A DNA stretch of 64,000 bases from Lysobacterales bacterium (GCA_016721015.1 JADKJL010000008.1:32472-96471); one strand, 5' to 3'; counted from the stretch's first letter, positions 10,164-63,637 are shown. Translations and numbers: made by a program. The notes: generated by a model not told the origin, from the letters alone.

Positions 10164-11474
10164 TCAGTTGTCAAAGCCGTCGTCGAAAATGAAATCAAAA
10201 ACGAGCTTATTGACGACCCCGTTGGATTGGGCGATGTAGAGATTGCCATACTCATCCTCACCATAGCCGTAGGGCGCGCCAACCGTAAGTCCAGTGTTCT
10301 GGATTCCGGAGGGCGACCAGTTCGTCTGCGCGGTTCCGGCCGTCGCATACCAAAGCGCGCTCGCGCATGAGTCGCCGTAGAAGTACGTGCCCCGAAGACG
10401 CAATGACGGCCCGCGATAGACATACCCTCCCGAAACCGCGCATCCGAATGAATGACTATATTCGATGACCGGCGCGACGGTGCTCGTGGTGGCGGGGCAG
10501 GTGGTTCCCGAACCCGTGGCATCGAAGTAGTGACGGCCCTCGCAGCGACTCCAGCCATGATCGCTTCCGCCGGTGCCAGCCGCCTGAACCGTCACTTCTT
10601 CGTAGGTGTTCTGCCCGACGTCGCCGATGACCAGATCACCGGTCAGGCGATCGAAGCTGAATCGCCACGGATTGCGGAAGCCATGCAGGAAGATCTCGTC
10701 GCAGGTATTGCTCGTACCGACATGCGGATTGCTCGGCGGAATCGCGTACTGGGCCGGACTGATCCCTGACGAGCCGCACATATCGGCGGTGACCGCGCCA
10801 CCGCGCGTGTCGACATCAATGCGCAGGATCTTGCCGAGCATGTAGTACTGGGTACCCGATGTATCGCCGCAGGCACTTCCCGATGTGGCAGGCTTTTTCC
10901 ACAGGCATTCGGCGAAGTGGTAGGGATTGTTCTGCGCGCCGCTGTCGCCCATTGAGTAATACAGATAGCCATCGGGCCCGAAATGGATATCACCGCCATT
11001 GTGATTGCCCGCGAGATCCGGCACGCGCAGCACAATCGTGCCCGTGGTGTTGGCGACGTCGGAAACGAGCGTCGGGACCGTGTATCGCGCGATTACCTGA
11101 TCCGGTGTGCCTCCGAGACGTGGATCTGCGCCCGGTCGCGTATAGGCGACGTAGAACTCGTCGTTGTGCGGTAGCGAAGGCTTGCCGAAATTCGGATGGA
11201 AGGCCAGCCCGAGCAATCCGCTCTCGCTGTTGGTCGTGACCGCGACCGTGAGGAATGCCGGACCGAGGGCAACGCCATTCTTGACGATCTTGATCTGACC
11301 GCCCTTCTGCACGATGAAGATCCTTCCGCTGCCATCGTGTGGCGCACGAACCGCGACGGGTTCGGAATAGCTGCCAGCCACTGCAGATACCGAAAGCCCC
11401 GGAATGGTCTGTGCGAAGGCTGCTGAGCAGGCGAGCAGGAATGCAAGGGGAACAAGATGTCTGAGGAAACGCAT
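10164..11474 (-). CDS. PQQ-dependent sugar (aldose/sorbosone) dehydrogenase, exported; ends in the FIFDDGFDN tail
   Basis: GLLGLAFHPNF, HNGGDIHFGPDGYLYYSMGDSG, GFRNPWRFSFD, DVGQNTYEEV and GGYVYRG. Signal peptide MRFLRHLVPLAFLLACSAAFAQ, with start 11474 behind ggagg. Confidence 0.85.
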   Translation of the reverse strand: MRFLRHLVPLAFLLACSAAFAQTIPGLSVSAVAGSYSEPVAVRAPHDGSGRIFIVQKGGQIKIVKNGVALGPAFLTVAVTTNSESGLLGLAFHPNFGKPSLPHNDEFYVAYTRPGADPRLGGTPDQVIARYTVPTLVSDVANTTGTIVLRVPDLAGNHNGGDIHFGPDGYLYYSMGDSGAQNNPYHFAECLWKKPATSGSACGDTSGTQYYMLGKILRIDVDTRGGAVTADMCGSSGISPAQYAIPPSNPHVGTSNTCDEIFLHGFRNPWRFSFDRLTGDLVIGDVGQNTYEEVTVQAAGTGGSDHGWSRCEGRHYFDATGSGTTCPATTSTVAPVIEYSHSFGCAVSGGYVYRGPSLRLRGTYFYGDSCASALWYATAGTAQTNWSPSGIQNTGLTVGAPYGYGEDEYGNLYIAQSNGVVNKLVFDFIFDDGFDN

Positions 11475-11640
11475 GGACAGAACCTCCAGGAGGAATCGCG
11501 AGTGTCGCGTGGAGAACAGCCGCTTGCCACCACGCGTGCATTGCAATGTGATCGACTCGTCACATGCAAGTCACTCAGGCGGATCAGCGTTATGCCGCAA
11601 ACCGCCAAGTGAAATGTGAAACAAACATGAAGAATGAGGT

Positions 11641-48636: not shown

Positions 48637-50088
48637 TCATGGGACGACTTCGAAACCATTCCTGAAAATGCGATCGGTGACGGGAGGCGTTGCTCCATAT
48701 TCATACGCGCCCACATCACAGTTCAGACCCTCTCCGCGCAGCCCACCACGCTCATCAAGGCTCAAGGAGACGAGAGTGTCGTCAACGCAGCCTTGTGTCG
48801 TGGTGGCATTGATCGCCGAGCTTCCGGCCAGCAGTGCGTGCGTCAGCGTCAGTCCGCCGTTGTCTTGCAACGGCCCGATCGAATCGATATCCACAAAACC
48901 CCGGGCTGGGATTCCATTGCCAGTGAATGAGCAGCCGGCAACGTCGTTGAAAAGATTCCGACCATAGACCTCCAACGTCCCGTTGCAATCGTTGTAGATG
49001 GGCGCATCGAGGATCGTGTTGCGCGCAATCAGGGAATTGACCGCAATAAAGCGCATTCCTGACGCCGTATTCACTCCCCCGCCTACGCCACCCAGTTCAT
49101 CACGGTCATGATCGGCGTCGTTATCGATGATGCTTGAATTGTAGCTATATACCTTCGAAAGATTGTTGACACCGCCGCCATCGGTATAGGCGAAATTGCC
49201 GCTCAACGTGCTGTTGACGAGAGTCACTTCGGGGATCTCTTGCGGATGGACCAAGGTGAAATAGACTTCGATCCCGCCGCCAAAGTTGGCGCCGTTGGAA
49301 CTGATCGTAGAGCTGTAAACGTGTGCATTGCCGTATCCGCTGACGAATACACCGCCGCCGGCGCCTTGGGCAAGATTGGCGCTGATGCTGGCATAGCCCA
49401 GAGTGGCGGGGCCGGCCAGATACAATCCGCCGCCGCTGTAGGCAGTCGTATTCGAGCGGATGGTCACGTGTTGAAGGGTGAGCATGCTGCCGAGGAGGCT
49501 TGCGATACCGCCGCCCGCCGAGGCGGAATAGTTGTTCTCGATGATGCAATCGTCAAGGCGCAGGAGTCCCTGGTTCTGAATGCCGCCGCCGGCTCCCATT
49601 CGGTCACTGTCGTTCCCATTGAGCACGGTCAATTTGCTCAAAAATACAATTCGACCTGCACTGACCGACAATGCACGATCGGTATGGTTTGCGTCGATGA
49701 CGGTGGTGGCTGAGCTGTCGCCATCGATATACAGATACGGCGAAGGAGAAACCGGTGTAGTGAGATTCAGATCTCCCGACGCCTCCCCATTGTCGAACGT
49801 CGGGGCAAGTGACAGAGTGAACCTGCCTGCTGGCACTTTGATATGCACGCTGCCATTCGTCGAAACACGATTGGCTTGCATGATCGCCGCGCGCAGCGAG
49901 CAGGTATTGGCGCTGGTATGGCAGATTCCGTCACTCGTGTTGTCGTCGATCTGGTCCATCGTGGTATTGACGGTAAACGTAACGGTAGCGTCCACGGCCC
50001 GTGCCCAAGTCGGCGCAAGTACAAGGAGCACAGGTGCCACCAACGCGAACCGTGCAACCATGCAGCGCAACACAGGAAGATGTTTCAT
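48637..50088 (-). CDS. Secreted CSLREA-motif / Pmp-like GGGI-repeat beta-helix protein (choice-of-anchor-Q-like); ends in DRIFRNGFEVVP
   Basis: Signal peptide MKHLPVLRCMVARFALVAPVLLVLAPTWARA. DGICHTSANTCSLRAAIMQAN. Repeated xGGG[IVL] turns. CDVGAYEYG lies near the end. RBS gagga. Confidence 0.75.
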   Translation of the reverse strand: MKHLPVLRCMVARFALVAPVLLVLAPTWARAVDATVTFTVNTTMDQIDDNTSDGICHTSANTCSLRAAIMQANRVSTNGSVHIKVPAGRFTLSLAPTFDNGEASGDLNLTTPVSPSPYLYIDGDSSATTVIDANHTDRALSVSAGRIVFLSKLTVLNGNDSDRMGAGGGIQNQGLLRLDDCIIENNYSASAGGGIASLLGSMLTLQHVTIRSNTTAYSGGGLYLAGPATLGYASISANLAQGAGGGVFVSGYGNAHVYSSTISSNGANFGGGIEVYFTLVHPQEIPEVTLVNSTLSGNFAYTDGGGVNNLSKVYSYNSSIIDNDADHDRDELGGVGGGVNTASGMRFIAVNSLIARNTILDAPIYNDCNGTLEVYGRNLFNDVAGCSFTGNGIPARGFVDIDSIGPLQDNGGLTLTHALLAGSSAINATTTQGCVDDTLVSLSLDERGGLRGEGLNCDVGAYEYGATPPVTDRIFRNGFEVVP

Positions 50089-50172
50089 CCGTTTTCCTCG
50101 AAGGCACAAACAGGCACGCAAAGCCAAGCCGAGGCGCACGCTGAAGGCATCACTTTCCAGCTTGTCCATGAC

Positions 50173-51486
50173 CTATTCAAATCCATTGCTGAAAATTCGA
50201 TCAGTCACCGCACCGTACTCGTATGCGCCGACATCGCATCTGACTCCGAACGGGCGAGATCCTCCACGTTGGTCGTCAGGCAACGGGGTAAGATTCTCAT
50301 CGACGCAGCCGAGATTGTCGTACGTGCTGTCGATCGCCTGACTACCCGGCAGGAGCGCGTGCGTCCAGGTTGAACCGCCATTGTCTTGCAATGGGCCGAT
50401 CGTGCTCGGCGTGATCAAGCCGTGGCTGGAAGCGCCATTGCCGCTGAAAGAGCAAAACGCGCCGTCATCCCCAAACAGGTTCCAGCCGTAGACTTCGAGG
50501 ATGCCTTGGCAATCGTTTTCGTTGACATAGCCGGTGGCGTAGTTGGCCGCGATCAGTGAATTGACGACCAGGGAACGCGAACCGGATTCGGCGTAGATCC
50601 CGCCGCCGCTCCCACCCGTCTGGTCGTGATCGTCGTCGGCGTCGTTGTCGACAATCGTCGAGTTGTAGATGAACGTGGCAATTCGGCTGTAGATTCCGCC
50701 GCCATTGTCATCAGCCGTATTTGCACTGACCGTGCTGTTGACGACAAACAGTTGATCACCGTCGTTGTAGATTCCACCGCCTTGGTAGGCATGATTGTCA
50801 CTTACCGTGCTCGCGAGAATCTCGACGCGATTGCCGATGCCGAACGTATCGATACCACCCCCTTCGTGGGCGTCGTTCGAGCGGATCGTGCTCGACTTGA
50901 CCAGCAGGGCACCCTGAAAGTTATCGATCCCACCACCATACGTGTGGGCGGTGTTGTTCTCAACGATGCTTCTGAACAGGGTCAGATCACCCTCATTTCG
51001 AATACCGCCGCCGCTAAACGGACTGTTGCCGCCGCGAATCGTGACGTGGGAAATTGTGGCTGGGCGTCCTTGCGCAATGGCGAAGACGCTGCCCACGTGA
51101 TTGGCGTCGATGATTGTGCTTGCCGCGGACTGGCCAAGGATGACGATCCGTTGACCGGCAATCAGCGCCGTCGTCAGATTGAGATCGCCCACTGCTTCAT
51201 CGTCAACAGCCCCGAATGGCACGGGGATAGACAGCACGTAGTTGCCTGCCGGCAGATTGATGATGGCGTACTCGGGATTGCTCCAGTGATTGGCTTGCGT
51301 GATTGCCGCGCGCAGTGAACAGGTGCCAGCGCTTGTGTGACATAGCCCATCATTGGTGTTGTCATCGGCCAGATCGAGAACGGTGTTGACGATGAACGTG
51401 ACATCGGCACGTGCAGAACCGGCACCGAGAACAACCAGCACGATCCATGCGGCAGCCATCCGTCTGAAAACGATCGGGGCGTTCAT
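50173..51486 (-). CDS. Paralogue of the preceding CSLREA/GGGI-repeat beta-helix protein; ends in DRIFSNGFE
   Basis: Signal peptide MNAPIVFRRMAAAWIVLVVLGAGSARA. DGLCHTSAGTCSLRAAITQAN, GGGI repeats and CDVGAYEYG. It lies 84 nt upstream of its paralogue. Confidence 0.75.
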   Translation of the reverse strand: MNAPIVFRRMAAAWIVLVVLGAGSARADVTFIVNTVLDLADDNTNDGLCHTSAGTCSLRAAITQANHWSNPEYAIINLPAGNYVLSIPVPFGAVDDEAVGDLNLTTALIAGQRIVILGQSAASTIIDANHVGSVFAIAQGRPATISHVTIRGGNSPFSGGGIRNEGDLTLFRSIVENNTAHTYGGGIDNFQGALLVKSSTIRSNDAHEGGGIDTFGIGNRVEILASTVSDNHAYQGGGIYNDGDQLFVVNSTVSANTADDNGGGIYSRIATFIYNSTIVDNDADDDHDQTGGSGGGIYAESGSRSLVVNSLIAANYATGYVNENDCQGILEVYGWNLFGDDGAFCSFSGNGASSHGLITPSTIGPLQDNGGSTWTHALLPGSQAIDSTYDNLGCVDENLTPLPDDQRGGSRPFGVRCDVGAYEYGAVTDRIFSNGFE

Positions 51487-51631: not shown

Positions 51632-52213
51632 ATGAGCAGTCCCGACAGCGATTTGCCAAGTGATCCGACTGCGGCCTGGGATGACCTCTCACCCGCGTCG
51701 GTGCGCAGTCTGGCTGACCAGTTGATGCCGCTGTTCCATGACGATCTTCGTCGACTGGCTCACCGTGAACGCAGCCGGGTCAGTGCTGGCGAAACGCTGC
51801 AGACGACCGCCCTGGTCAATGAGGCCTACCTCAAATTGCGCGGTTCGAACGGCTGGAACACGGACGAGCACTTCCTTCGCGCTGCCGCGCTCGCCATGCG
51901 TCACGCGCTGGTCAATCACGCCGTGGCTCGTCTGGCGAGCAAGCGTGGCGATGGCGCGACTCATGTTTCAATTACCTCCGCTCTTGATGTGGCGATCGAG
52001 GACGACGCATCCATCGTCGCCCTGAACGAAGCGCTCGGCAGACTCGCGCGGGATTCACTGCGCCTCGCCCAAGTTGTGGAATGTCGCTATTTTGCCGGCT
52101 ACGATGATGCCGAGACGGCACTTGCACTGGGAATCTCGGAACGAACAGTACGCCGCGACTGGATCCTCGCCCGTGCCTGGCTGCATCGTGAATTGGCGCA
52201 GTCGACGCCTTGA
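51632..52213 (+). CDS. ECF-type sigma factor (Sigma70_ECF / TIGR02999-like, the kinase-associated class)
   Basis: LMPLFHDDLRRLAHRERSRV..GETLQTTALVNEAYLKL and the C-terminal region-4 HTH ALGISERTVRRDWILARAWL. Confidence 0.85.
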   Translation: MSSPDSDLPSDPTAAWDDLSPASVRSLADQLMPLFHDDLRRLAHRERSRVSAGETLQTTALVNEAYLKLRGSNGWNTDEHFLRAAALAMRHALVNHAVARLASKRGDGATHVSITSALDVAIEDDASIVALNEALGRLARDSLRLAQVVECRYFAGYDDAETALALGISERTVRRDWILARAWLHRELAQSTP

Positions 52214-52321
52214 AGCGATCGCCGCAACGTCGGCATCTGCGCATCCATTCACTGACGGGAATTTAAGTCCATGACTTCGGCTCTGTGGATGCATGCGGTG
52301 GTGCAACGCGCCTGCACGTCG

Positions 52322-55004
52322 TCAGCTCTGGTCGAACTCCATGCGGGCGCGCAGCAGGCTGGCACGCTGCCGGCTGATATCGCCTTGGGTGTTGGTCAGC
52401 GCGTGCTCAGCATTCTCAAGCAAGCGTCCCGCCTCCTCACGCTTCCCCTGTCCAAGCAGACAGTGAACAAGTTCGGCCGCGCTCTCGATTGCGCGTCGAT
52501 CGTTCGCACCAAATTCGCTGGACAGGCGGGCCAACGCCGCTCTCAACGGCGGCTCCGCCTCTGCAAAGCGATGCTGTGCGGAAAGCGCCTTGCCCAGACC
52601 AAGGTGAGCGGCCTCAGCATAGATGTGCCGACCGTCTCCGATCTGCGCGAACGTCGCAAGCGCTGCACGATAATCGTGCTCGGAACCTTTTGCATCGCCG
52701 GCGGCCAGTTGCACGTCGGCGAGGGCAGTAATGCTGACAGCCGTGTAGACATGCTGGGGTCCGAGGGTTTTTTCGTAAATCTCTTTTGCTTGTCGGAGTG
52801 CCGCGATCGCTGCCTGAGGATCCCCGGAAGCTCCGAGGGTCTGCCCGAGACCGGTCAGCGCGACTGCTACATAGCTGTGGTCGCGCCCATAGTTTTGTTC
52901 ATAGAGTTCGACACACTCGCGGAAGACCGGAATCGCCGCCTTGGAAATCACCACTTTGGCGCAACGCGGACGCCAACTGATGCAGTGCGTTGGCAAGGTT
53001 AGGATGATGGTCGCCGTAAAGTTGTCGGACGGACTGCGCATTCTTCCTCAGCAGGGGCACCACCTCGTCAAAGCGCCCGAGCGAGGTCAGGATCGTGCCG
53101 AGTCGTTCGCGCAGAGTCAGTAACGTGCTGGAGCTTTCCTGGGCTTGCGATCCGAGCAGGGCCAGCGCTTCGCGCAAGGGCTGCTCCGCTTCCGCGATAT
53201 GTCCGTCCTCATACACATAGTAGCCACGTGTCGAAAGCGCTTCGGCAAGCTCGGCAACATTCGGCGACGGGAGCCGACGCAAGGCTGCAATGCACTGGTC
53301 GATCCAGATGATGGCCAGCGCATAATTGCCGCGTTCGCTTTCGAGGGCTGAGCGAGTGCTCAACAAGACCGCCCGGAGTTCGAGCGCATCATTCGGATGC
53401 ATCGCCATGGCGGCCGACGCTTCGTCAAGCAGCGCTTGCGCGGCATCGAAGCGTTGCGCGGAAATATCCGCGCGTGCCATGTCGACTTGCGCCTCGATGC
53501 GGCGCACGTCATCGCGAGCATAGGCGAGATCGGCCTGGGCCAGACGCAGCTTGAGCAACTCCTCACCTCGCGGGTTCTCGCCGAGCGCGCGATAGAGTTT
53601 TCCGCTCACGCCGAGCAACTCGATGCGTGTGTCGGTGTCGTCCGCGAAGCCGAGCTCGATCCGGCGAGCGCCGACATCAACAAGTTCCCGCGCAGTCATT
53701 TGGTGGCTGTTGCCAGCCTCGGGATCATTCTGGCGAAACAAGTCGATGACGAAGTTGCGCACGACGTCGGCACGCGCGAGCGCCTTGCCGGTCTCGATTC
53801 TCGCCTTGTTTGCGTAGAGCACGGCAGCGCTGAGCGCCAGAACAAGCACACCCAGGCCGGTTATCGGCAGCCAGTGTCGGCGCAGAAAGCGCGCGGCCAC
53901 GTAGGTCCGCACACCGCTTCGCGCAAGCACGGGCTGATAGTGCAGATGCCGATCAATATCGCGCTTCAGGCCGACCACCGTATCGTAGCGATGCGTCGGT
54001 TCCCGGCGCAGGCATCGCCCAACAATGGCATCAAGATCGCCCTTGAGCCGTCGCGTGGCGACCGGTGCGGAGGGATTCGATGCGGCAACGCGACTCGGCG
54101 AAGGAGGGTCGCGTTCGACGACACGCTTGAGCATCTGCGCAGTCGGCAAACCGCGGGTGCGCACCGGTCGATCGCCGGTCAACAGCTCGAACAGGAGTAT
54201 GCCCAGCGCATAGATATCGGTGCTGGTCGTCACCGGCTCGCCGCTGAATTGCTCAGGCGCCGCATAGTCCGGCGTGAACGGTGCGACCGTATGCTCGACT
54301 TCGCCTGGCAAGGCTGCCATGTCGATCAACTTGGCGATGCCGAAATCGAGCAGCTTCACGCTTCCATCTGCCGTGACGAGGATGTTGTCCGGCTTGAGAT
54401 CGCGGTGAATGATCAGGTTGCGATGGGCAAAGGCCACCGCATCGCATACCTGCATGAACAAGGCGAGTCGTTCGTGCAGGTTGGCGCGACGCTCGCGGCA
54501 GAATCGGGTAAGACTGACGCCCTCGACGTACTCCATGACCGTGTAGGGGCGACCGTCGGCGGTCGTGCCGCCATCCAGCAAGCGCGCGATCCCGGGATGT
54601 TCAAGGCGAGCAAGGAACTGTCGCTCCGCGTGAAAGCGCTCGATCTGGGTAGCCGCCTCCTGGCGCAGCAGCTTGAGCGCCGCCCGTTGCTCGAACGCCG
54701 CGTCGACACGGGAAGCCTCATAGACCTCACCCATGCCGCCGCGACCGATCAGTCGATCGACTTTCCAGACACCGAGGCAAGTACCGGCGGCGAGCGAAGG
54801 CGGCATTTCCGGGGCGGCAACGGGCGCCGGTGCCTTGTCGAGCGGACCCAGCGATTCGTGGGCGTCCAACAGCGACTCGATCTCGACGCGGAGGTCAGAG
54901 TCATCCGCACAATGTCGTGCGAGAAACGCGCCACGCTCTGCCGGCGGCCGCGATAGCGTCTCGGAAAAAAGGCTTTCAAGCCGTACCCAACGTTCCGACT
55001 GCAT
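52322..55004 (-). pseudogene. Ser/Thr protein kinase with TM segment and TPR-like C-terminal domain; reading frame broken near 52940-52955
   Basis: The kinase motifs HRDLKPDNILV, DFGIAK and APE are intact, and the TM segment is WLPITGLGVLVLALSAAVLYA. ORF 52899..55286 ends ...LRQSGDFQGGDSGLPRVCRTL*. The overlapping frame (52322..53041) continues the TPR pattern (...KAAIPVFRECVELYEQNYGRDH...). The fused length would be ~894 aa, against 911 aa for the intact paralogue. This could be a true frameshift or a sequencing error. Confidence 0.7.
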
Positions 55005-55229
55005 CGACCAGACCCTGTTCCCCCAGCAGAATGAATTGTGCGCCCGAATGGGCCACCGGCAAACTGGAAAGTGACAAAGGAAACCCGGCAAATCGGCTGG
55101 TCCGCCGATTGGCGAATCAGGGTTTCCAATGGAGCCTCCTCGGGAAAGCATTGCGAGAACATTCCATTTCCCGCAGCAGTTGCTTTGCGGGGGGATTACC
55201 GATGCCTGGGAGCTCGTGTACTCTGAGTA

Positions 55230-55838
55230 TTGAACCGGTTCCGGATTTCCCGTCCTTTGACGAAGGCAACTTCGAGCGATACGCAAGTGTCCGTATCCGG
55301 CCTATCCGGATCGGCTGCCGCATCTGACGAGCAGGTCGATCATTTGTTCGCCGCGGTTTACGCCGAGTTGCGCCAATCCGCGCATCGAATGCGTCGCCTG
55401 CAACGCGGCGACACGCTCAACACCACATTGTTGGTGCATGAGCTGTATCTGCGCTTCAAGAAGAGTGACAGCGCGCGATTCGAATCGACCCCGCAGTTTT
55501 TCGCCTATGCCGCGCGTGCCCTTCGATCCATCATGGTCGATCATGCGCGCAGCAGGATCGCCGAACGCGAACGCATCTCCGATATGACCATGCTTGCCAT
55601 TCTGGATGCAGAAACACCGGCGCTGTCGCCGAACCAGGCTCTGGCCTTGAACGATGCCCTGCAGCAACTCGAACAGGACGACGCGCGTGCGGCAAAAGTG
55701 GTGGAGCTGCACTTTTTTGCCGGACTGAGTTTGCCCGAGGTGGCCAGGCATCTCGAGCTCACCACGCGTACGATTGATCGTGACTGGCGCTATGCCCGTG
55801 CGTTTCTGCAAAGCGTGTTGGGAGACAGCTCGCACTGA
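55230..55838 (+). CDS. ECF-type sigma factor (same class as 51632..52213)
   Basis: DHLFAAVYAELRQSAHRMRRLQRGDTLNTTLLVHELYLRF and the region-4 HTH HLELTTRTIDRDWRYARAFL. The start is uncertain, since the N-terminal 30 aa look non-canonical. Confidence 0.8.
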   Translation: MNRFRISRPLTKATSSDTQVSVSGLSGSAAASDEQVDHLFAAVYAELRQSAHRMRRLQRGDTLNTTLLVHELYLRFKKSDSARFESTPQFFAYAARALRSIMVDHARSRIAERERISDMTMLAILDAETPALSPNQALALNDALQQLEQDDARAAKVVELHFFAGLSLPEVARHLELTTRTIDRDWRYARAFLQSVLGDSSH

Positions 55839-55951
55839 CCGTTCAGTCGGGCTGGCCGCTCCATGTCGTGTTTTTCCGCTACGGGCCGTTGGTTGCATTG
55901 AATTCCACCTGCGCGATTGCGCAACGACAACGATCTTTCAGGCATTGATGG

Positions 55952-58687
55952 ATGACCGCAAACACCCCGGGCTCGAAAGTACGCGAACTGTTTGATGGCG
56001 CGCTTGAGATCGATGCAGCAGATCGTGCCGCATGGTTGATCAGGCAAACGGATGATTCAGTGCTACGTGCGCGAGTGCAGGCCCTGCTGGATGCCGAGCG
56101 CACCCCGAGCCATTTGCTTGATCAACCGTTTGCGGAAAAACTGTCCGGCATCCTGTCGACACCTGCCCACGATTTGTCCACTCATGCGATAACCGCAAGT
56201 TCCATGATCGGACAGCGCATCGGTGCCTACGTCATCACACGGTTGATTGGTCAGGGCGGCATGGCGAGCGTGTTCGAGGCCCAGCGCAGTGACGGCAGCT
56301 ACAGTCAATCGGTCGCCATAAAACTGCTGCGTCGAACCTTGCATACTGAATTGGAGCTGCGATTGTTCCAGCGCGAGCAACAGGCGCTGGCAGCGCTCGA
56401 ACATCCGAATATCGCCAGACTACTCGACGGTGGAATCACTGATTCGGGTGCGCCTTACCTGGTCATGGAACGAGTACACGGCACGGATCTGTTGCGTTTC
56501 GTGCAGGGCAGGAATCTGCCGTTGCGGGAACGCTTGAGCCTGTTTGTCCAGATCTGTGATGCGGTAAACGCCGCCCATCGCGCCTTGATCGTGCACCGGG
56601 ACATCAAACCCGCCAATATCCTTGTTACCGATGAGGGCGTGGTCAAGCTGCTGGATTTCGGTATCGCCAAGATCCTGAATGAGGATGCCGCCGCTGCGCC
56701 GACGACCTACGCGCCGATGACGCCCGAGTATGCAGCGCCCGAGCAGTTCGATGGCCGCACCATTACTACCGCAACCGATGTGTATGGATTGGGCGTCGTG
56801 CTGCATGAAGCGCTCACCGGCTCCCGGCCCAAGCGCGGCGATACCCGCCGTGCCTCGGATGCAATCACCGCACATGCCACTCAAATGCCGCCCACTACGG
56901 CAAGAAACACCGGTGAGCTCAAGCGCTTCCTGCGCGGCGATATCGACAATGTCCTGCGCCAGGCACTGGCCATCGAACCCAACCTGCGCTACTCCTCCGC
57001 TGGCGATCTGGCCGCCGATCTGCGCCGATTTCTCGACGGCCAACCTGTCCAGGCGCATCCGCCGAGCGGTTGGTATCGGACCCGAAAGTTTGTCGGCAGA
57101 AACCGCCTGGCTGTTGCCCTCTGTGGTGCCTTGCTTCTGGGCCTGCTCGCCAGCTTGAGCGTTGCGCTGCAGCAGGCACGGGAAGCCATGCGTCAGACTG
57201 CCGTTGCGCTCAGCGCGGAAGCTGATAGCAGGGCTGAGCTGGCCCACGCGACCAGCTTGCGCGATTTTCTGGAAGCCCTGTTTGAGCCGGTACGCGTCGG
57301 CATCGCAGAGGGAAAAGCCCCGACAGTCAGGGAACTGGTTGTTGCGGGTGAAACGCAGCTTCGTGAAAACACGAGATTGGCTGCGCCGGCGCGCGTTGAA
57401 ATGTTGTCGTTCTTCGCGTTTCTGCACGAGAGTATCGGCGAGCTTCCCAGCGCCAGACGATTGGCGACAGAATCCGTCGAGTTGGCAGAGAGAACCCTGA
57501 CGAAGGAAGATCCACGTTACTCGGCAGCGCTCGCGATGCGCGGTTTCACTGCCGTGCGCATGGAAGACTACCTGGCGGCCGAAGCTGATCTGCGTATCGC
57601 CTTGCCATTGATGAAAAAAACAGGACAGCGCGGCTGGGCGCTCGCCAATGCGATGCAGGCAATGAGTTCGATTGAAAACATCAATGGACACCCAGAGAAA
57701 TCATTGGAGTATGCCAAGGGCGATCTTGCTGAACGCATTTTCGCCTTCGGCGCCAGCGACCGCCGAGTCGGCGTTGGCTACAACAACATCGCCGATGCAC
57801 TTGAGGCGATGGGGCAATATCGGCAGTCCATCGTCGCGTACGAATCCGCGTACGAAATCCAGTCGGCACGACTCGGTCCGGACAGTGCGGAAACTACCCT
57901 CGCGCTGGCTGGTCTGGCATCCAGTTATTGGCGAGCCGGTCAGTGGCGGCATGCGCGCCGCTTGTTCCAACAAGCCTCGGAACGCTTCGACCGAGTCGGT
58001 GGAAAAGCACAGATCGTTCAAATATATGCAGTCGTCAAGCTTTGCATGCTTGAGCATTGGCTGGCGCATGCTGCCGAAGCCGAGCAGGCATGCGCCAAGG
58101 CACGTACGCTGACGGCGGCATCGCTGGGTCGCAACAGCGCGTCCTGGGGCGATATTGAAAGCGCGGAATTCGAGGGGGATCTTGAGCTTGGCGATTTGCC
58201 CAAGGCCCATGCCGCTTACCTGCTTGCCAACGCGTTGTATCCGCCCACTGTTGCGAATCGACTTCGTCGTGGGCGATTGCAATCGTCCTATGCCGAATGG
58301 CTGATGCGCCAGGGTCGCTGGGATGAGGCCAGGAAACTCTTGCCTGAAGCGATCAGCGATATCCAGGCGCGACCACACAAGATTCCCCTGTTGCTGGCCC
58401 AGGCGCGACTGCTATTCGCCTGCCAAAAATCGGCGGGACCCGAGTGTTCGACGGGTTTGCGCGATGCTTATGAAGAAACCTTGGCTGCAGTTGCCGATCT
58501 CGATCATCCGCAAACACTCATTGCGGAAACCCTGATCGCGCAAATCGACCTGCCCATCGATAGCGCGAAAGCAAAGGCGCGGTTGCGCACGGTGATCGCC
58601 AGCGTCGAATCGGAGCTTGGGGCGATGCATCCGCGCATGCTGGCTGCCCGCGAAGTGTTGGCAAGTTCTCCTGGACAAGCCGAGTAG
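55952..58687 (+). CDS. Ser/Thr protein kinase with TM segment and TPR-like C-terminal domain
   Basis: RELFDGALEIDAADRAAWL leader. GQGGMASVFEA, AIKLL, HRDIKPANILV, DFGIAK and APE. TM segment LAVALCGALLLGLLASLSVAL. A long helical-repeat C-terminus. It lies 113 nt downstream of its ECF sigma gene. Confidence 0.85.
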   Translation: MTANTPGSKVRELFDGALEIDAADRAAWLIRQTDDSVLRARVQALLDAERTPSHLLDQPFAEKLSGILSTPAHDLSTHAITASSMIGQRIGAYVITRLIGQGGMASVFEAQRSDGSYSQSVAIKLLRRTLHTELELRLFQREQQALAALEHPNIARLLDGGITDSGAPYLVMERVHGTDLLRFVQGRNLPLRERLSLFVQICDAVNAAHRALIVHRDIKPANILVTDEGVVKLLDFGIAKILNEDAAAAPTTYAPMTPEYAAPEQFDGRTITTATDVYGLGVVLHEALTGSRPKRGDTRRASDAITAHATQMPPTTARNTGELKRFLRGDIDNVLRQALAIEPNLRYSSAGDLAADLRRFLDGQPVQAHPPSGWYRTRKFVGRNRLAVALCGALLLGLLASLSVALQQAREAMRQTAVALSAEADSRAELAHATSLRDFLEALFEPVRVGIAEGKAPTVRELVVAGETQLRENTRLAAPARVEMLSFFAFLHESIGELPSARRLATESVELAERTLTKEDPRYSAALAMRGFTAVRMEDYLAAEADLRIALPLMKKTGQRGWALANAMQAMSSIENINGHPEKSLEYAKGDLAERIFAFGASDRRVGVGYNNIADALEAMGQYRQSIVAYESAYEIQSARLGPDSAETTLALAGLASSYWRAGQWRHARRLFQQASERFDRVGGKAQIVQIYAVVKLCMLEHWLAHAAEAEQACAKARTLTAASLGRNSASWGDIESAEFEGDLELGDLPKAHAAYLLANALYPPTVANRLRRGRLQSSYAEWLMRQGRWDEARKLLPEAISDIQARPHKIPLLLAQARLLFACQKSAGPECSTGLRDAYEETLAAVADLDHPQTLIAETLIAQIDLPIDSAKAKARLRTVIASVESELGAMHPRMLAAREVLASSPGQAE

Positions 58688-58805: not shown

Positions 58806-61124
58806 ATGCGTATTGTTTGCGTTTTTTTTCTCCTGATCTGCCACAGCCAGGCCATGGCCGCGATTTTCACGGTGGGCGGCGCGGTCAACTGCACCCACAA
58901 CACGATTCAAGGCGCGGTCAATGCTGCAGCAGTCAATCCAGGGGCAGATACACTGCGCATTGCCAACGCCGGCACCTACTTTGCCGAAGCGGTGACCATT
59001 GGCGCGCAGGATTTAGTCATCGACGGTGGATATGCCAACTGTGCCGACACCACACCCAGTGGTGGCAGCGCCGTGATCAGTGGCCAAGGCGGCGCTGCGG
59101 CCTCGGTGTTCTCGATCACCGGCGCGGGCAACCGGCGTTTTGAAAACCTCGGCATCACCCGCGGCGATGCACCGACCACAGGGCGCGGTGGTGGCATTCG
59201 CTTTGAAGGCAGCGGCTTATTGACGTTGCGCAACGTGACGGTTGCCATTAACCAGGCCGGCGCTGGCGGTGGCATCTATTTTCGCGGCGACGGCAATCTC
59301 GCCGAGTTGTTTTTGGATCTCGATACCTTCGTGATCCTCAACACGGCCACCGCGGTTGCTGGATTTGGCGGCGGCATCGCGGTAGTCAACACCGCACGTC
59401 TGCTGATGCTGCAAGACCGTACGCAAATTTCGAGCAACAGCGCGATTGGTGTAGACAGTGTTGGCGGTGGATTGGCGGTGTTTGGTGATGCCACGGCGGA
59501 CATCGGATCGCCGGGCTCAGGCGTAAATGGGGCGATCTACGACAATGAAGCGGGTTCCGGTGGTGGCATTGCGGTGGTGAACGACGCATCAGGTGGACCG
59601 TTCACGTCGGCGCGCCTGTTCACCACCGACGCTAACCGTCCGGTGCGTGTGCATGGCAACCGCGCCCGCCGCGTCGGAGGCGCCATTTTGGTCCGACCGT
59701 TTTACAACGAGATTAACGTTTACAACGCCGACGCCTGCGTTGAAAATGGTCGCATCGACAACAACACCGCCCAAGAAGGCGCTGCAATCTATGTTGATAC
59801 CGATGAGTCACTGTCGCAGCGAAACCTGGGCGGCACATTTAAGTTCAATGCGGGTTGCAGCGGCCTGGCTTTACCCGGCAGCATTCCTTGTAACCCCGGC
59901 GCCCCCTGCAACCGCATCGAAAACAACACCGCGCGAGATATCGTTAATAACGTCAACACGCCCGGCGCCGTGTTACTCGCGCAGATCAACGCCAATGTCA
60001 TCCTCAATAGGGTGGCGTTCAACAACAATACGGCGCGCTACGTCATTCGCTCCGTCGAAGCGCAGGCGCTGACGCTCAACAAATGTCTGGTCGCACAAAA
60101 CCAAGTCGCGAGCCATCTGATTTTTGCGGAAGCCGGTTCTGAGAACGTCGCCGTCACCAATTGCACGATCACCAATAACACCATGCCCACCGGTACAGCG
60201 GCGCGAATCGTGCTGCGCAATGGCAGCGGCCCGTTGGTGCTGAAATACAACCTGTTGTGGCAGCCGGGCAATCTTGCCTTGGCCTACGGTGGCAATGTCA
60301 GCACCTTGAATCCCGATATCGAATACAACATCACCAACTCGGTGACCAGTTTGCCGCCCAGTCCATGGAATCAATTTGCGCTTCCCCGTTTTGCTGATCC
60401 GGCGCGCGGCGATTTTCGTCAGCGGATCAGTTCACCCACGCTCGATGTGTTCCCGCCATTGGCCAACGTCGGCAATGACTACGACGGCCGTGCCTACGAT
60501 CAGGACCTGCGGCTGTGCCCCGTGGCCGGCACCCAGGTTATTCGCGATGCTGGCGCTTTCGAGCGGCAACGAAGTGACCCGTGGTTGGTCAACGGCGACT
60601 TTAATGGCGATCTCAATTTGTGGGCCGGCAACAACCCCGGCTTGACCAGCTACAGCACGTCCAACGCGGTGGGCAGCAGCGGCGGATCACTGGCGTTTAA
60701 TCGGGACGAATCGATTGGCAACACCACCCCGCGCTATAACGCCGGCGTGCAGTGTTTCAACGTGCCGGCACCCGCCGTCTATCGCCTCAGCGCGCACGGT
60801 CGCGCCGCAGGCAATATCTTGCTGAGTCGCGACCGACCGGTTATTCGTTGGCGGCTGCGTAACAACTCGGAAAATTGCGCCCAAGCCGACCCGATTGCCA
60901 CCGAGGGCGATCTATTCCTGCCGAACAATGCCGCATTTGCAGCGCCGCTTGCGCCAGCAGAAATCAACGTCACCGCGGCACAGTGGACGGCAAATACCAC
61001 CATCGAAGTGCGCCTCGACGTTGAGCCGGATTTTCTCGACCGACCGATTGATGCCGGATTCGACAAAGTCGAAATCAGCAGCCCGTGCAGCAATGATTTG
61101 ATCTTTGCCAATGGCTTTCAGTAG
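58806..61124 (+). CDS. Secreted GGGI-repeat beta-helix protein with C-terminal CBM-like jelly-roll; ends in DLIFANGFQ
   Basis: Signal peptide MRIVCVFFLLICHSQAMA, so the ORF-track start 58617 overlaps the kinase gene and is unlikely. AIFTVGGAVNCTH, repeated GGGI[RYA]F turns, DAGAFERQ, then WLVNGDFNGDLNLW. Confidence 0.8.
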   Translation: MRIVCVFFLLICHSQAMAAIFTVGGAVNCTHNTIQGAVNAAAVNPGADTLRIANAGTYFAEAVTIGAQDLVIDGGYANCADTTPSGGSAVISGQGGAAASVFSITGAGNRRFENLGITRGDAPTTGRGGGIRFEGSGLLTLRNVTVAINQAGAGGGIYFRGDGNLAELFLDLDTFVILNTATAVAGFGGGIAVVNTARLLMLQDRTQISSNSAIGVDSVGGGLAVFGDATADIGSPGSGVNGAIYDNEAGSGGGIAVVNDASGGPFTSARLFTTDANRPVRVHGNRARRVGGAILVRPFYNEINVYNADACVENGRIDNNTAQEGAAIYVDTDESLSQRNLGGTFKFNAGCSGLALPGSIPCNPGAPCNRIENNTARDIVNNVNTPGAVLLAQINANVILNRVAFNNNTARYVIRSVEAQALTLNKCLVAQNQVASHLIFAEAGSENVAVTNCTITNNTMPTGTAARIVLRNGSGPLVLKYNLLWQPGNLALAYGGNVSTLNPDIEYNITNSVTSLPPSPWNQFALPRFADPARGDFRQRISSPTLDVFPPLANVGNDYDGRAYDQDLRLCPVAGTQVIRDAGAFERQRSDPWLVNGDFNGDLNLWAGNNPGLTSYSTSNAVGSSGGSLAFNRDESIGNTTPRYNAGVQCFNVPAPAVYRLSAHGRAAGNILLSRDRPVIRWRLRNNSENCAQADPIATEGDLFLPNNAAFAAPLAPAEINVTAAQWTANTTIEVRLDVEPDFLDRPIDAGFDKVEISSPCSNDLIFANGFQ

Positions 61125-61291
61125 AGCGGTTCACAGCTGGCCGGGCGGGATGCCAGACCAAGCCTGCTTGTGCTGGCTATCCACTTTTTCTCGACTTTTT
61201 CTTACAACGCTCAAGGCTTGCAAAACAAATGTCGTGATTGTTCGCGCGGCTCCGTTAGTGAAGGAGCCAACCCCGAGCAGCGAACCCATCC

Positions 61292-63637
61292 ATGAATCGT
61301 TTCTGCCTTCTGTTTACGTGCGCCTGCCTTGCTTCGAGCAGCGCCAGCGCCGCAATCTTCACCGTCGGCTCGGCCGTCGGCTGCACGCACAGCTCTATTC
61401 AAGCAGCGCTCAACGCGGCTTCGGCAAACGCTGAAGCCGACAGCATTCGCATCTCCAACCAGCTCAGCTACACCGCACAGGCCATCACCATCGGCGGCGG
61501 CGATATCACTTTGGTAGGCGGCTACAGCGACTGTAGTACCACGACGCCGACAGGTTCGACCACGATCAGTGGCCTCGGCGGGGCGACGGACTCGGTCATC
61601 AAGATAACTAGTGACGGAGTCCGCTACTTCAAGCGCTTGTTGATTACGCGTGGCGACGCGATCGGGGCTGGTGGCCGCGGTGGCGGCATACGCTTTGACG
61701 GCACCGGCGATCTGATTCTGGAAGATGTCAGCGTCGATCAAAACGCAGCCCTGAGTGGTGGCGGCATCTATTTTCGCAGCACCGGCGGCGCAGCTACCCT
61801 GCTGATCAACAGCAACAGTGCGATTTCGCGCAATACCGCAATCGAAGCAGACGGCCATGGCGGCGGCATCACAATCACCGGTAACGCGCGGTTGATCATG
61901 GCTGCGAACAACACCTCGATCTACAGCAACACCACAACCGGCGCCAATTCTCGCGGCGGTGGTGTGGCGATTTTTGGCCCGGCGCGTGCCGATATTGGCT
62001 CGCCGGGACTGGGGCCCTTTGGCGCCGTTTTCGATAACGAAGCCGAATTTGGTGGTGGTATCGCTATCTATGCGAGCACTGGATCGCCTCAGGATAATGC
62101 CTATGCCAGGGTCTTTTCGACCGACCCCGATCGCCCGGTTCGCATTCACGGCAATCGCGCGCGCAGTTTGGGCGGTGCTGTTTTCGCGCGCTCGGAGAGC
62201 TTTGGCGGGGAGACGCTAGCGGGGCTGTGTTTGCTAGATGCTCGCGTTGACGGCAATACAGCGCCCGAAGGTGCGGCGTTCTACTCAGACTCCACCACCA
62301 ATGCACTCGGGCTGTATCCCTCCAGCAGCCGCTTGTCCATCAACGCAGGTGACGCATCGGCGTGCAGTGCCCCAGAACAAGCAGCCACGTTGGGCGCGCT
62401 GCGCTGTACGCCGAATGTGGCGGGTTGCAACGTGATCGAAAACAACCGCGCCATCAATATCGGCAGCGGCACGCCAACCACTGGCGCGATCATTTTGGGC
62501 CAGACCTCGTCGGAATCGATCATTCGCCGGGTGAGTTTTCTCAACAATAGCGGTGGCAGCGTGATTGACCTGCGCGAGGCACGCCATTTCGAGCTCGGCT
62601 TGAGCCTGCTGGCAGGCAACACCCTCTCGAGCAACTTGCTGAAGGCCAACGCCGGCACGGAATCGTTCCGCGTGTTGAACGCAACCATCAGCAATAACAC
62701 CATTGGCGATGCACGCGTTATCTCGCGCGCTGGCAGCGGCTTGATCGAAATTAAAAACAACCTGATCAACCAGCCCGGGAAATTCACCCTGAGCTATGGC
62801 GGCAACGTCGGCAGCGCCAGCGCCGATATCGCCTACAACGTCAGCACCGACATCAGTACGCTGCCGCCGAATTCATTCAACGTCACCGGCCCGATTCGCC
62901 TGACCGATCCTGCACGCGGAGACTACCGCCAGCGCATTGCCTCGCGTGGCGTGGACACGTTGCCGACCATCGCGGGCAATGATCTGGATCTGGATGGCCG
63001 CCCGTTCGATGTGCTGAATCCGATCTATGCCGCGACGGTCGCCGCCGCGAATAGCCGCGATGCCGGCGCTTTCGAGCGACAGGTGAGCGATCCCTGGTTG
63101 GTCAATGGCGAATTTGATGGGGATTTGAACCTGTGGACCAGCTCAACGCCGACCCTGACCAGCTACAGCACCCTGAATGGCCCTGGCAGCAGCGGTGGGT
63201 CGGTGGCATTCAGTCGAGCCGCAACCACGGGTGATCCAAGCCCGCTCGCCTTCAACGTGCTGCGTCAATGCTTCAACGTGCCTGCCGCCGGGGTCTATCG
63301 CCTGAGCGCTCAGGGCCGCGCCCCCGGATCGGTCCTGGTCAGCCACGACAAGCCTTTCGTGCAATTGTTCGTACGCTACAACTCGGCCAACTGCACGGGC
63401 GGCATCGATCAGATTGCGAGCGAATACCTGCCCAACCAGGCGAGCTTCGCAACGATGCCCAATCCACTTGAGGTATCGATTACGCCGGCCCAATTCACTG
63501 ATGGCACGACGCTGGAAGTGCTATTGAACGTGGAACAGGATATTTCCGGAACCGCCATCAATGCGGGCTTCGATAGAATCCAGTTGACCGATGGCAGCCT
63601 GTTCGATTTGATTTTCGCGAATGGATTCGAGAATTGA
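61292..63637 (+). CDS. Paralogue of 58806..61124: secreted GGGI-repeat beta-helix plus CBM-like domain; ends in DLIFANGFEN
   Basis: Signal peptide MNRFCLLFTCACLASSSASA. It is colinear with its neighbour (AIFTVGSAVGCTH, GGGIRFDG, GGGIYFRS, HGNRARSLGGAVF, DAGAFERQVSDPWLVNGEFDGDLNLW). Confidence 0.8.
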   Translation: MNRFCLLFTCACLASSSASAAIFTVGSAVGCTHSSIQAALNAASANAEADSIRISNQLSYTAQAITIGGGDITLVGGYSDCSTTTPTGSTTISGLGGATDSVIKITSDGVRYFKRLLITRGDAIGAGGRGGGIRFDGTGDLILEDVSVDQNAALSGGGIYFRSTGGAATLLINSNSAISRNTAIEADGHGGGITITGNARLIMAANNTSIYSNTTTGANSRGGGVAIFGPARADIGSPGLGPFGAVFDNEAEFGGGIAIYASTGSPQDNAYARVFSTDPDRPVRIHGNRARSLGGAVFARSESFGGETLAGLCLLDARVDGNTAPEGAAFYSDSTTNALGLYPSSSRLSINAGDASACSAPEQAATLGALRCTPNVAGCNVIENNRAINIGSGTPTTGAIILGQTSSESIIRRVSFLNNSGGSVIDLREARHFELGLSLLAGNTLSSNLLKANAGTESFRVLNATISNNTIGDARVISRAGSGLIEIKNNLINQPGKFTLSYGGNVGSASADIAYNVSTDISTLPPNSFNVTGPIRLTDPARGDYRQRIASRGVDTLPTIAGNDLDLDGRPFDVLNPIYAATVAAANSRDAGAFERQVSDPWLVNGEFDGDLNLWTSSTPTLTSYSTLNGPGSSGGSVAFSRAATTGDPSPLAFNVLRQCFNVPAAGVYRLSAQGRAPGSVLVSHDKPFVQLFVRYNSANCTGGIDQIASEYLPNQASFATMPNPLEVSITPAQFTDGTTLEVLLNVEQDISGTAINAGFDRIQLTDGSLFDLIFANGFEN

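Follow-up and report, generated by a model that had tools for sequence, protein, structure and literature searches.

A short C-terminal tail on unrelated exported proteins of Lysobacterales most likely represents a novel type of sorting tag

Exported proteins of different families encoded within a single stretch of a Lysobacterales genome (64,000 nucleotides, analysed in full and hereafter called the window) share a motif of nine residues at or near their C-termini. This raises the question of what such a tail does, and whether it belongs to any recognised class of C-terminal signal. The original prediction was that nine proteins end in this motif. A six-frame regular-expression search of the whole window for D-x-I-F-x-[N/D]-G-F-[E/D/Q] returned nine in-frame copies, and the same nine were recovered with the DNA pattern GAYNNNATHTTYNNNRAYGGNTTYSA. 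No match appeared in 100 dinucleotide-preserving shuffles of the window, in agreement with the earlier claim that the tail is not a compositional artefact. Eight of the nine copies are C-terminal, 0-3 residues before the stop codon, and the ninth is internal. The copies and their carriers, each on the same strand as its motif, are as follows.

10170..10196, minus strand: tail DFIFDDGFD, then N and the stop codon (10164-10166), reading FDFIFDDGFDN-stop; carrier ORF 10164-11474, a PQQ-type glucose/sorbosone dehydrogenase (Pfam GSDH)
31167..31193, minus strand: tail DRIFADGFD, stop immediately after, reading LDRIFADGFD-stop; carrier ORF 31164-33623, an M14 carboxypeptidase with a MAM-like domain (Pfam)
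33718..33744, minus strand: tail DLIFKNGFD, stop immediately after, reading VDLIFKNGFD-stop; carrier ORF 33715-35097, an M12/reprolysin-like peptidase (Pfam)
44465..44491, minus strand: tail DLIFVDGFD, then P and stop, reading ADLIFVDGFDP-stop; carrier ORF 44459-46282, a beta-helix protein (Pfam)
47532-47558, minus strand: internal copy DPIFSNGFE (EPDPIFSNGFEDQ) at the esterase/GH5 junction of ORF 46449-48470
48649..48675, minus strand: tail DRIFRNGFE, then VVP and stop, reading TDRIFRNGFEVVP-stop; carrier ORF 48637-50169, a CSLREA/choice-of-anchor Q protein (NCBIfam)
50176..50202, minus strand: tail DRIFSNGFE, stop immediately after, reading TDRIFSNGFE-stop; carrier ORF 50173-51486, a CSLREA/choice-of-anchor Q protein (NCBIfam)
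61095..61121, plus strand: tail DLIFANGFQ, stop immediately after, reading NDLIFANGFQ-stop; carrier ORF 58617-61124, exported, with a probable start at 58806
63605..63631, plus strand: tail DLIFANGFE, then N and stop, reading FDLIFANGFEN-stop; carrier ORF 61292-63637, a paralogue of the ORF 58617-61124 protein

The eight tails agree exactly with their earlier transcription, and the domain assignments made at that time were recovered as well (GSDH, M14 plus MAM, reprolysin, beta-helix, esterase plus GH5, and CSLREA plus choice-of-anchor Q twice). Neither Pfam nor NCBIfam matched the two plus-strand carriers, which had been described earlier as beta-helix/CBM proteins. Judged by eye, all nine carriers have signal-peptide-like N-termini. 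As had been proposed, the motif is confined to its carriers: it is present in no other ORF of the window, whether exported (S10, BNR/sortilin, M20, M6, Gcw_chp) or cytoplasmic.

The esterase-GH5 protein departs from the prediction, since its copy lies at the junction of two catalytic modules, a PHB-depolymerase-type esterase and GH5. The C-terminal MDLIENDF-stop of this protein had been read as a degenerate copy, but it probably is not one because it falls outside the motif pattern and is located past the GH5 match. The same ending is identical in a syntenic Dokdonella ortholog (L014), which has the same motif arrangement. In another ortholog (L078) the copy reads DAIFQSSFE, a degenerate form, and the C-terminal domain after it is a different one. 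The few internal copies at module junctions are those of the window protein, L014, L043, and L054, and in L050 a copy directly follows the signal peptide. Such positions are unexpected for a strictly C-terminal signal.

Scanning a single representative genome for each species gave 108 in-frame motif matches. The distance to the stop codon is at most five residues for 81 of these and at most 15 for 88. These 88 terminal matches use all three stop codons, and nearly all come from Dokdonella, Rudaea, Tahibacter, Pseudolysobacter, other Lysobacterales, Marinicella, Alcanivoracaceae, and unclassified Gammaproteobacteria. The 20 non-terminal matches comprise five in these home lineages, where terminal copies are far more numerous than internal ones, and one or two in each of 14 unrelated groups, where they are chance-like. 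Clustered by blastp, the 83 carriers form 51 groups, and the 71 complete ones match 43 Pfam families that include hydrolases and adhesin-like repeats. Signal-peptide-like N-termini are found on 58 of the 71, compared with 196 of the 437 ORFs that neighbour them (odds ratio 5.5, p=6e-9), and L116 bears a Tat signal. Carriers are enriched in export signals. The tail is non-random, conserved, almost always terminal, and restricted to exported proteins and certain taxa.

Sequence upstream of the motif is not conserved, which indicates that the tail is autonomous. Among 61 homologs of the choice-of-anchor Q protein from ORF 50173-51486 (mean column identity 46%), G435 and F436 never vary, and conservation reaches 90% or more at D429 and F432. 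The tail is also conserved among homologs of the M12/reprolysin-like protein, including those that have acquired an FN3 domain and still end in it. In these two families, at 40-77% identity, the tail is as conserved as the core, and this pattern shows purifying selection on it. AlphaFold2 models of the two proteins, which have different folds, show confident bodies and tails of low confidence that lack regular structure (pLDDT below 50 at residues 421-437 of the choice-of-anchor Q protein; mean pLDDT 51 for the tail block of the M12/reprolysin-like protein). Neither model thus predicts docking of the tail onto the protein that carries it.

Several well-described signals resemble the tail. The PEP-CTERM/exosortase, GlyGly-CTERM/rhombosortase, MYXO-CTERM, IPTL-CTERM, and LPXTG/sortase systems likewise act on the C-termini of signal-peptide proteins from many unrelated families, are lineage restricted, and occur on choice-of-anchor domains. 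However, these signals are tripartite, with a motif, a hydrophobic helix of ~20 residues, and a basic cluster. The tail has only 0-5 residues past its motif (0-3 in the window, 0-5 in 81 of 108 scan matches), and a transmembrane-like stretch follows in frame beyond the stop codon in just 1 of 88 terminal matches; the earlier statement that no hydrophobic helix follows is thus upheld. A tripartite signal was rejected on these grounds and because no curated HMM matched. The carriers in the window show weak domain-level similarity to rhombosortase-dependent proteins, and no cognate exosortase-, rhombosortase-, or sortase-type enzyme is encoded among the window genes. A search of NCBIfam with full proteins, and with isolated tails at E<=10, gave no match to a sorting-signal model. 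Pfam and NCBIfam hold a model for neither the short tail nor the longer relative described below, and we found no paper on either.

Other candidates were set aside for different reasons. A type I secretion signal spans ~50 uncleaved residues, often with RTX repeats, on proteins that have no signal peptide, whereas the carriers have Sec/Tat-type N-termini. The T9SS C-terminal domain (TIGR04183/TIGR04131) is likewise a C-terminal element, one that sends exoproteins through the outer membrane or onto it, but it folds into a beta-sandwich of 70-100 residues and is found in Bacteroidota. In comparison, the tails span 9-21 residues and occur in Gammaproteobacteria and Acidobacteriota. The conserved element is nine residues long with unconserved sequence upstream, too short for such a domain as was originally argued, and it has no NCBIfam match. 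The outer-membrane protein (OMP) beta-signal and the DegS-activating Y-x-F C-terminus are similarly short, aromatic-containing C-terminal peptides that are read in the periplasm. The beta-signal places a final aromatic residue on a beta-barrel, and the tail is distinct from it, as predicted: the last residue is the motif Glu/Asp in 28 and Pro in 18 of 88 terminal matches, and the carriers are soluble folds such as hydrolases, beta-helices, and propellers.

A close parallel is the YLP-box (NCBIfam NF050076, an 11-position "putative sorting motif"), which is equally short, lacks a transmembrane helix, lies at or near the C-terminus, and has a function that is likewise putative. Its sequence is unrelated (Y-L-P-L-x-x-R, hydrophobic and basic, versus an aromatic and acidic tail), and its taxa are presumably different. 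None of the eight window tails matches NF050076 at E<=10 (threshold 15 bits), and the YLP tail of a homolog scored 11.7 bits in the same search. However, the YLP-box occupies the exact position of the tail in choice-of-anchor Q homologs. Both window proteins of this family match NF041518 (63.0 bits for ORF 48637-50169 and 70.2 for ORF 50173-51486; cut-off 25), and these matches end at residues 491 of 510 and 424 of 437, immediately before the tail. The N-terminal CSLREA match scores 27.0 bits in the first protein (cut-off 25) and 22.9, just under the cut-off, in the second. Homologs end in the D-x-I-F tail, a YLP-box, a PEP-CTERM-like tail with helix and basic residues, a T9SS C-terminal domain (for example, P0291), or dockerin-like repeats. 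The pair was therefore rightly assigned to a choice-of-anchor family with interchangeable C-terminal signals, and the tail fills the same slot as known anchors and putative sorting signals of other lineages.

The most plausible interpretation of the tail is a protein-sorting tag of a new kind. Our favoured reading, held with moderate confidence, is that it serves as an autonomous, flexible, surface-exposed recognition peptide that directs sorting or localisation without a membrane anchor. Carriers would first cross the inner membrane by Sec or Tat, and a putative partner would then recognise the tail in trans, either within the periplasm or at the outer membrane. This partner would set the fate of the carrier, either by handing it over for export through the outer membrane or by keeping it at the cell surface or in the matrix. 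Against this reading, neither the genes of the window nor the recurrent neighbours at about 235 loci yielded a candidate sorting enzyme, receptor, or dedicated secretion component. The variable number of residues past the short motif (0-5) also counts against it, as it places the free carboxylate outside any fixed epitope. With no partner protein found, the sorting function is an inference, as are the reading in trans and the control of localisation.

Alternatively, the motif could be a processing site at which a dedicated periplasmic or extracellular peptidase cuts, and would then be a signal for maturation and not for localisation. Cleavage might trim the last residues or split fused modules such as the esterase and GH5. 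Secreted peptidases are abundant in the window and related loci, and internal copies fall exactly at module junctions (47532-47558, L014, and L054, as well as L078 with its different downstream domain). However, the stop codon directly follows the motif in 28 of 88 terminal matches, which leaves no downstream residues to remove, and terminal copies predominate in the home taxa. Moreover, acidic or Pro C-termini are poor substrates for M14-type carboxypeptidases, which suggests that the tail is kept. We consider processing rather unlikely.

It is also unlikely, and somewhat more so, that the peptide merely protects or stabilises the C-terminus of an exoprotein in a protease-rich setting without any partner. 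Such a cap would suit the hairpin-prone I-F-x-N-G-F-E sequence with its Asn-Gly turn, the M14 and S10 carboxypeptidases encoded alongside carriers, and the prevalence of Asp/Glu or Pro ends (Pro is last in 18 of the 60 short tails that extend past the motif, versus a 9% background). Yet a cap does not need seven near-invariant positions common to different phyla, and other exported proteins in the window do without it. The irregular, low-confidence tails of both AlphaFold models likewise give no sign of packing on the protein body.

The nine-residue motif plus 0-5 residues is the lineage-specific short form of a more widespread family. A long tail of 19-21 residues, ΦFADGFESGDTSAWSxxVP-stop, is common in metagenomes, with named examples from Thermoanaerobaculia/Acidobacteriota; 73 of 133 metagenome matches are terminal, and Pro is last in 34 of the 38 long tails with exactly five residues past the Trp. 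The taxon restriction, the internal copy, and this longer relative had no place in the original prediction. Nearly the same pattern over 13-17 residues, l-f-x-D-G-F-E-x-G-x-l-s-x-W, forms the first strand of CBM_4_9, CBM22, and LamG-like (NTTRR-F1) jelly rolls, and the short tail corresponds to its first nine residues. The tails lack the remaining 120-150 residues, replace the buried Leu or Phe at position 9 with Thr (p=2.5e-13), and end in S-x-x-V-P-stop. Alignments to CBM22 module starts in PDB 4xup (E 0.58), CBM_4_9 positions 6-20 (E 0.29), and NTTRR-F1 positions 3-24 (E about 0.1, internal copies only) are not significant. A complete CBM_4_9/NTTRR-F1 domain (about 130-155 residues) was rejected, as only the first 9-17 residues are present and scores stay below the family threshold. 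The long form is a class of its own that mimics a CBM/LamG first strand and bears its own signature.

This resemblance makes a structural or vestigial origin possible. By analogy with pilin N-terminal extensions in donor-strand exchange, the tail might be an orphan first beta-hairpin of a jelly roll that is captured through strand complementation by a surface or matrix receptor with an incomplete fold. We regard this as a speculative and distinctly doubtful version of the sorting tag. If this is true, these diderm bacteria would use a non-covalent "tag and catcher" system to present dozens of unrelated exoenzymes. It would explain why the tag occurs at either terminus or in linkers, is predicted to be flexible alone, needs no membrane helix, and mimics the first strand with the buried Leu/Phe changed to Thr.

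The tails could instead be functionless scars of lost CBM/LamG-like jelly rolls of which the first strand was left. Besides the marginal alignments above, 41 metagenome matches to the same 13-residue pattern have at least 100 more residues downstream, as would fit the beginning of a full domain. Such a relic is very improbable, given core-like conservation in two families, an identical truncation point in about 51 families, the tail-specific Thr and terminal signature, and retention of the terminal position after FN3 insertion.

A last alternative arises from genes that lie between two pairs of carriers (block 51632..58687) and are listed for context only (Pfam assignments).

51632-52213 and 55230-55838, plus strand: two ECF43-type sigma factor genes, each paired with one of the following kinases
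52899-55286, minus strand, and 55952-58687, plus strand: single-TM Hanks Ser/Thr kinases with TPR repeats C-terminally and a TM-like segment at about residue 380-470

Acidic C-terminal peptides are frequent ligands of TPR domains, and the tail could conceivably be a ligand of the TPR-containing C-terminal region of these kinases. It would then signal how much exoprotein is present, in the way that OMP C-termini inform DegS/sigma-E. At further loci, in both short- and long-tail sets, carriers of different unrelated families have a homologous kinase within 8 kb, and at L186 there is an 8-nt overlap between the carrier ORF and the kinase ORF. In the passages on the X. citri homolog PknS and its partner EcfK, the TPR region of PknS is periplasmic and required, and those passages name no ligand (PMC13147305). 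Nevertheless, this signalling role is the most far-fetched of the readings, since most carriers have no neighbouring ECF43-associated kinase. Moreover, ECF43/kinase pairs abound in Xanthomonadales (which account for 343 of the 1032 known ECF43 members in the passages of PMC13147305), so that adjacency may come from chance or from routine local regulation.

If it does act in sorting or retention, the tail would mark a previously unannotated route for whole sets of degradative enzymes and adhesin-like proteins. The bacteria concerned would be Dokdonella-type Xanthomonadales, frequent inhabitants of activated sludge and soil, Marinicella, and, for the long form, Thermoanaerobaculia/Acidobacteriota. 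The tail would then offer a handle of 9-21 residues for predicting exoproteomes in poorly studied groups, for finding the machinery, and possibly for heterologous targeting. Together with the equally uncharacterised YLP-box, the tail suggests that mini-tags free of a membrane anchor are a recurring solution that domain databases have largely missed.

Using a six-frame regular expression and a degenerate DNA pattern, we located nine in-frame copies of the tail motif D-x-I-F-x-[N/D]-G-F-[E/D/Q] in the 64-kb window. Eight of these lie 0-3 residues before a stop codon, with exactly the spellings given in the original prediction. The remaining copy is internal:

47532-47558, minus strand: ninth copy of the tail, EPDPIFSNGFEDQ, at the esterase/GH5 module junction of ORF 46449-48470

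The last residues of this esterase-GH5 protein (MDLIENDF-stop) had been proposed as a degenerate tail. This assignment is withdrawn, because the sequence does not fit the motif and the same end occurs in the ortholog at L014, a Dokdonella MAG locus that is syntenic with the window; it is a normal protein end. Another ortholog of the esterase (L078, a Tahibacter MAG locus, 5418-7301, minus strand) has the degenerate tail DAIFQSSFE and a different C-terminal domain in place of GH5, which suggests that the esterase-plus-tail unit is older than its fusions.

According to Pfam and NCBIfam, the window carriers are unrelated: a GSDH-type PQQ dehydrogenase, an M14 carboxypeptidase with a MAM-like domain, an M12/reprolysin-like peptidase, a beta-helix protein, a PHB-depolymerase-type esterase fused to GH5, two proteins with CSLREA and choice-of-anchor Q domains, and two paralogs that match no model. 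All have signal-peptide-like N-termini. The tail is absent from the remaining window ORFs, including the exported S10, sortilin/BNR, M20, M6, and Gcw_chp proteins, the first three of which had been correctly named as tail-less. Tailed homologs of the sortilin/BNR protein (26189-29263) are nevertheless encoded by ORFs 187-2781 and 6438-8000 of L003, a Rudaea MAG locus, and the presence of the tail thus varies within one family.

The claim that the tail is not a compositional artefact is borne out. No match was obtained in 100 dinucleotide-preserving shuffles, the motif occurs in low-GC Marinicella and Alcanivoracaceae MAGs as well as in high-GC Dokdonella, and its copies vary in codons. Recent duplication of a DNA cassette was likewise rejected, because the nine window copies use different codons, differing at most synonymous sites, and the protein upstream of them is not conserved. 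Each of the upstream positions from -25 to -1 carries less than 0.55 bit, and therefore the unit is the 9-mer itself.

Other features of the window were also recorded, and tRNA and Rfam scans found no member of either class in the window, including the intergenic region listed last:

2-5308, plus strand: genes for Baseplate_J-like and DUF6519 proteins together with an unannotated ORF of 782 aa, resembling the last part of a phage-tail-like or contractile-injection cluster
5413-5820, opposite strand to these genes: an adjoining HTH/CI-repressor-like gene
24051-25478, plus strand: a gene for a HipA-like kinase that carries an HTH at its N-terminus and may represent a toxin-antitoxin module
29264-31163: a stretch of about 1.9 kb separating the sortilin/BNR gene from the M14 carrier, with only short, unconvincing ORFs of low GC3 and an unremarkable GC content of 0.56-0.65

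To look beyond the window, we scanned one genome per species in GTDB r232 for D-x-I-F-x-N-G-F-[E/D], which returned at least 117 loci. Residues were fixed in this pattern and in the long-tail pattern described below, so natural variants of the motif are captured incompletely and the counts are samples. Among the matches listed, 108 are in frame in ORFs no shorter than 100 aa; the distance to the stop is 0-5 residues for 81 of them and at most 15 for 88, compared to about 1% expected that near the stop for random placement in ORFs of several hundred residues. The predicted enrichment within the last 15 residues is therefore evident. By the labels of the deposited MAGs, the 88 terminal matches listed come from Dokdonella (20), Marinicella/Marinicellaceae (11), Rudaea (7), Alcanivoracaceae MAGs (6), Tahibacter (3), Pseudolysobacter (3), and Denitratimonas (1), and the remainder from unclassified Lysobacterales, Rhodanobacteraceae, and Gammaproteobacteria MAGs, with almost nothing outside these groups. 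Of the 20 non-terminal matches listed, 15 are scattered, one or two each, over unrelated groups such as Clostridia relatives, Planctomycetota, Cyanobacteria, and an Asgard archaeon, as expected of a chance background; the remaining five are from Dokdonella, Rhodanobacteraceae, Marinicellaceae, and Alcanivoracaceae.

Each of the three stop codons occurs after the tail, and an in-frame hydrophobic stretch follows the stop in only one of the 88 terminal matches listed. A hidden anchor reached by read-through was rejected on these grounds, and the ends are true C-termini rather than truncated tripartite signals, in keeping with the earlier statement that no hydrophobic helix follows the tail.

The carriers are diverse. 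Among the short-tail matches listed, 83 carriers form 51 blastp clusters, and the 71 carriers with complete N-termini have hits to 43 Pfam families, including FG-GAP, beta-helix, GSDH, subtilases, M12, M64, endonuclease I, a phosphatase family, and DUF1501. As anticipated, signal peptides are enriched: by a crude heuristic under which several “negative” carriers show visible signal peptides, 58 of 71 carriers listed are positive compared to 196 of 437 neighboring ORFs (odds ratio 5.5, p=6e-9). One carrier (L116) has a Tat motif. These Sec-like and Tat signals imply that the tail would act after inner-membrane translocation.

Homologs of the carriers provide information on what can replace the tail. 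Most of the 120 closest choice-of-anchor Q homologs have the tail at their end, or a degenerate form of it such as DRIFATGFEP, EILFQDGFDR, or DTIFYNYFE, and about 17 of them terminate in Y-x-Y-L-P-L-x-x-R-stop (P0049, P0056, P0062, P0070, P0071, P0078, and others). This alternative end also occurs in the representatives P0250, P0284, and P0309, and in others. One such end aligns with the 11-position NCBIfam model NF050076, “YLP-box putative sorting motif”, at 11.7 bits (E 0.19), below the cut-off of 15; our full-text literature search found no paper on the YLP-box. Like the window tail, the YLP-box is an ultra-short C-terminal tail, and it takes the place of the former in choice-of-anchor Q proteins. 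The 146 more distant representatives carry at their C-terminus the tail, a YLP-box, a PEP-CTERM-like helix plus basic residues, a T9SS C-terminal domain, dockerin-like repeats, or nothing. The CSLREA pair belongs, as proposed, to a choice-of-anchor type (Q) whose C-terminal signals are interchangeable, and these swaps are the “choice of anchor” behavior behind the family name. Some M12 homologs stop directly after the catalytic domain (CLAP-stop); others have gained an FN3 domain and still end in D-x-I-F-x-N-G-F-E, which indicates that the tag stays terminal whatever the architecture.

Across 61 choice-of-anchor Q homologs with a mean column identity of 46%, tail residues G435 and F436 never vary, and conservation is at least 90% at D429 and F432. 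An AlphaFold2 model built from this alignment has a beta-helix mostly above pLDDT 90 and residues 421-437 below 50. The M12 peptidase was modeled from an alignment of 96 sequences; its last ten residues have a mean pLDDT of 51 and lack regular structure. Low tail pLDDT in two unrelated folds is suggestive, short of proof, of a free, flexible appendage rather than a packed strand.

Many M12 homologs, including some with the name Thermoanaerobaculia, terminate in I-F-S-D-G-F-E-S-G-x-x-x-x-W plus 0-8 further residues. Scanning metagenomes for F-x-[N/D]-G-F-E-x-G-x4-W gave at least 120 loci (L118-L237); among the matches listed, 133 are in frame, 73 of them with a stop no more than 10 residues away. 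Of 63 usable tails listed, 38 have exactly five residues past the Trp, and 34 of these 38 end in Pro. The consensus of the tails listed is [L/I/V]-F-A-D-G-F-E-S-G-D-T-S-A-W-S-x-[T/V]-[V/S]-P-stop, of which the window 9-mer is the first half. Among the matches listed, this stereotyped 19-21-residue long tail is found very often on metagenome contigs of high GC (P0387-P0506). A 44-residue profile of it found significant matches among 5.8 billion proteins (best E=1e-10), mostly short gene fragments that reveal little of carrier architecture; the few named ones are from Thermoanaerobaculia, Acidobacteriota, and Deltaproteobacteria MAGs.

The 13-residue pattern also opens full LamG/CBM-like jelly-roll domains, with at least 100 residues following in 41 of the matches listed. 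It aligns, non-significantly, with the beginnings of the CBM22 modules of PDB 4xup, with NTTRR-F1 positions 3-24, and with CBM_4_9 positions 6-20; a PDB sequence search with the tails gave only non-significant matches. The pattern is common to both groups, whereas the tails differ from domain starts in two respects. Among the matches listed, position 9 is Thr in 46 of 63 tails and Leu/Phe in 33 of 41 domain starts (Fisher test for hydrophobic residues, p=2.5e-13), and the ending S-x-x-V-P-stop occurs in tails only. These differences argue that long-form tails are a class of their own rather than decayed domains. Separately, three metagenome loci (L132, L164, and L216) have ORFs opening with M-[A/T]-R-[I/L]-F-I-D-G-F-E-x-G-D…W, a strand signature at the start of a longer ORF that lacks a signal peptide.

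Consistent with the suggestion that the tail is unnamed, NCBIfam release 20 (June 2026) and Pfam hold no model for its short or long form, and no hit from either covers the tail in full proteins. Isolated short and long tails matched no tail model at E<=10, in a query type that did find the equally short YLP-box model. Full-text literature searches returned no relevant papers on the tail, the long tail, or choice-of-anchor.

We see about an even chance that the tail is a recognition tag without a membrane anchor that is read in trans after export. Its strict link to exported proteins, a terminal position that survives rearrangement of the domains, strong purifying selection on a sequence predicted to be flexible in two unrelated fold models, its restriction to certain lineages, and its interchangeability with established anchors all favor this reading. 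No suitable partner was found among the window genes, and neighbor clustering (117 + 120 loci listed; about 235 loci) found no dedicated recurrent neighbor gene.

Internal copies are located at module junctions, which would suit a maturation or cleavage site, an alternative that we regard as unlikely. A purely cis-acting protective cap would be consistent with tails ending acidic or in Pro, and we judge it slightly less probable again. It is doubtful that the tail acts by strand complementation, inserting into a receptor jelly roll. A vestigial stub is very improbable, since the tail is conserved and has a signature of its own.

The lowest probability falls to an interaction with kinases encoded between the two carrier pairs of the window:

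51632-58687: two pairs of ECF43-type sigma factor and TPR-Ser/Thr-kinase genes

These single-TM Hanks Ser/Thr kinases have a TPR-containing C-terminal region, of which the tail would be the ligand. In the homologous kinase PknS of X. citri, this region is periplasmic and required, and the text available names no ligand (PMC13147305). Homologous kinases adjoin carriers of unrelated families in both scans (L014, L029, L062, L070, L073, L169, L186, and L195), and at L186 the ORF of the carrier shares 8 nt with that of the kinase. The ECF43/kinase pair is the sole recurrent non-carrier neighbor among the 117 + 120 loci listed, at a level not above possible chance; such pairs are numerous in Xanthomonadales, and adjacency to carriers may therefore be coincidental.

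If the tail is a recognition tag, a carrier would first be exported to the periplasm, where its tail would be recognized in trans by a putative partner. This reading would then set the fate of the carrier, either passage through the outer membrane or retention on the cell surface or matrix.
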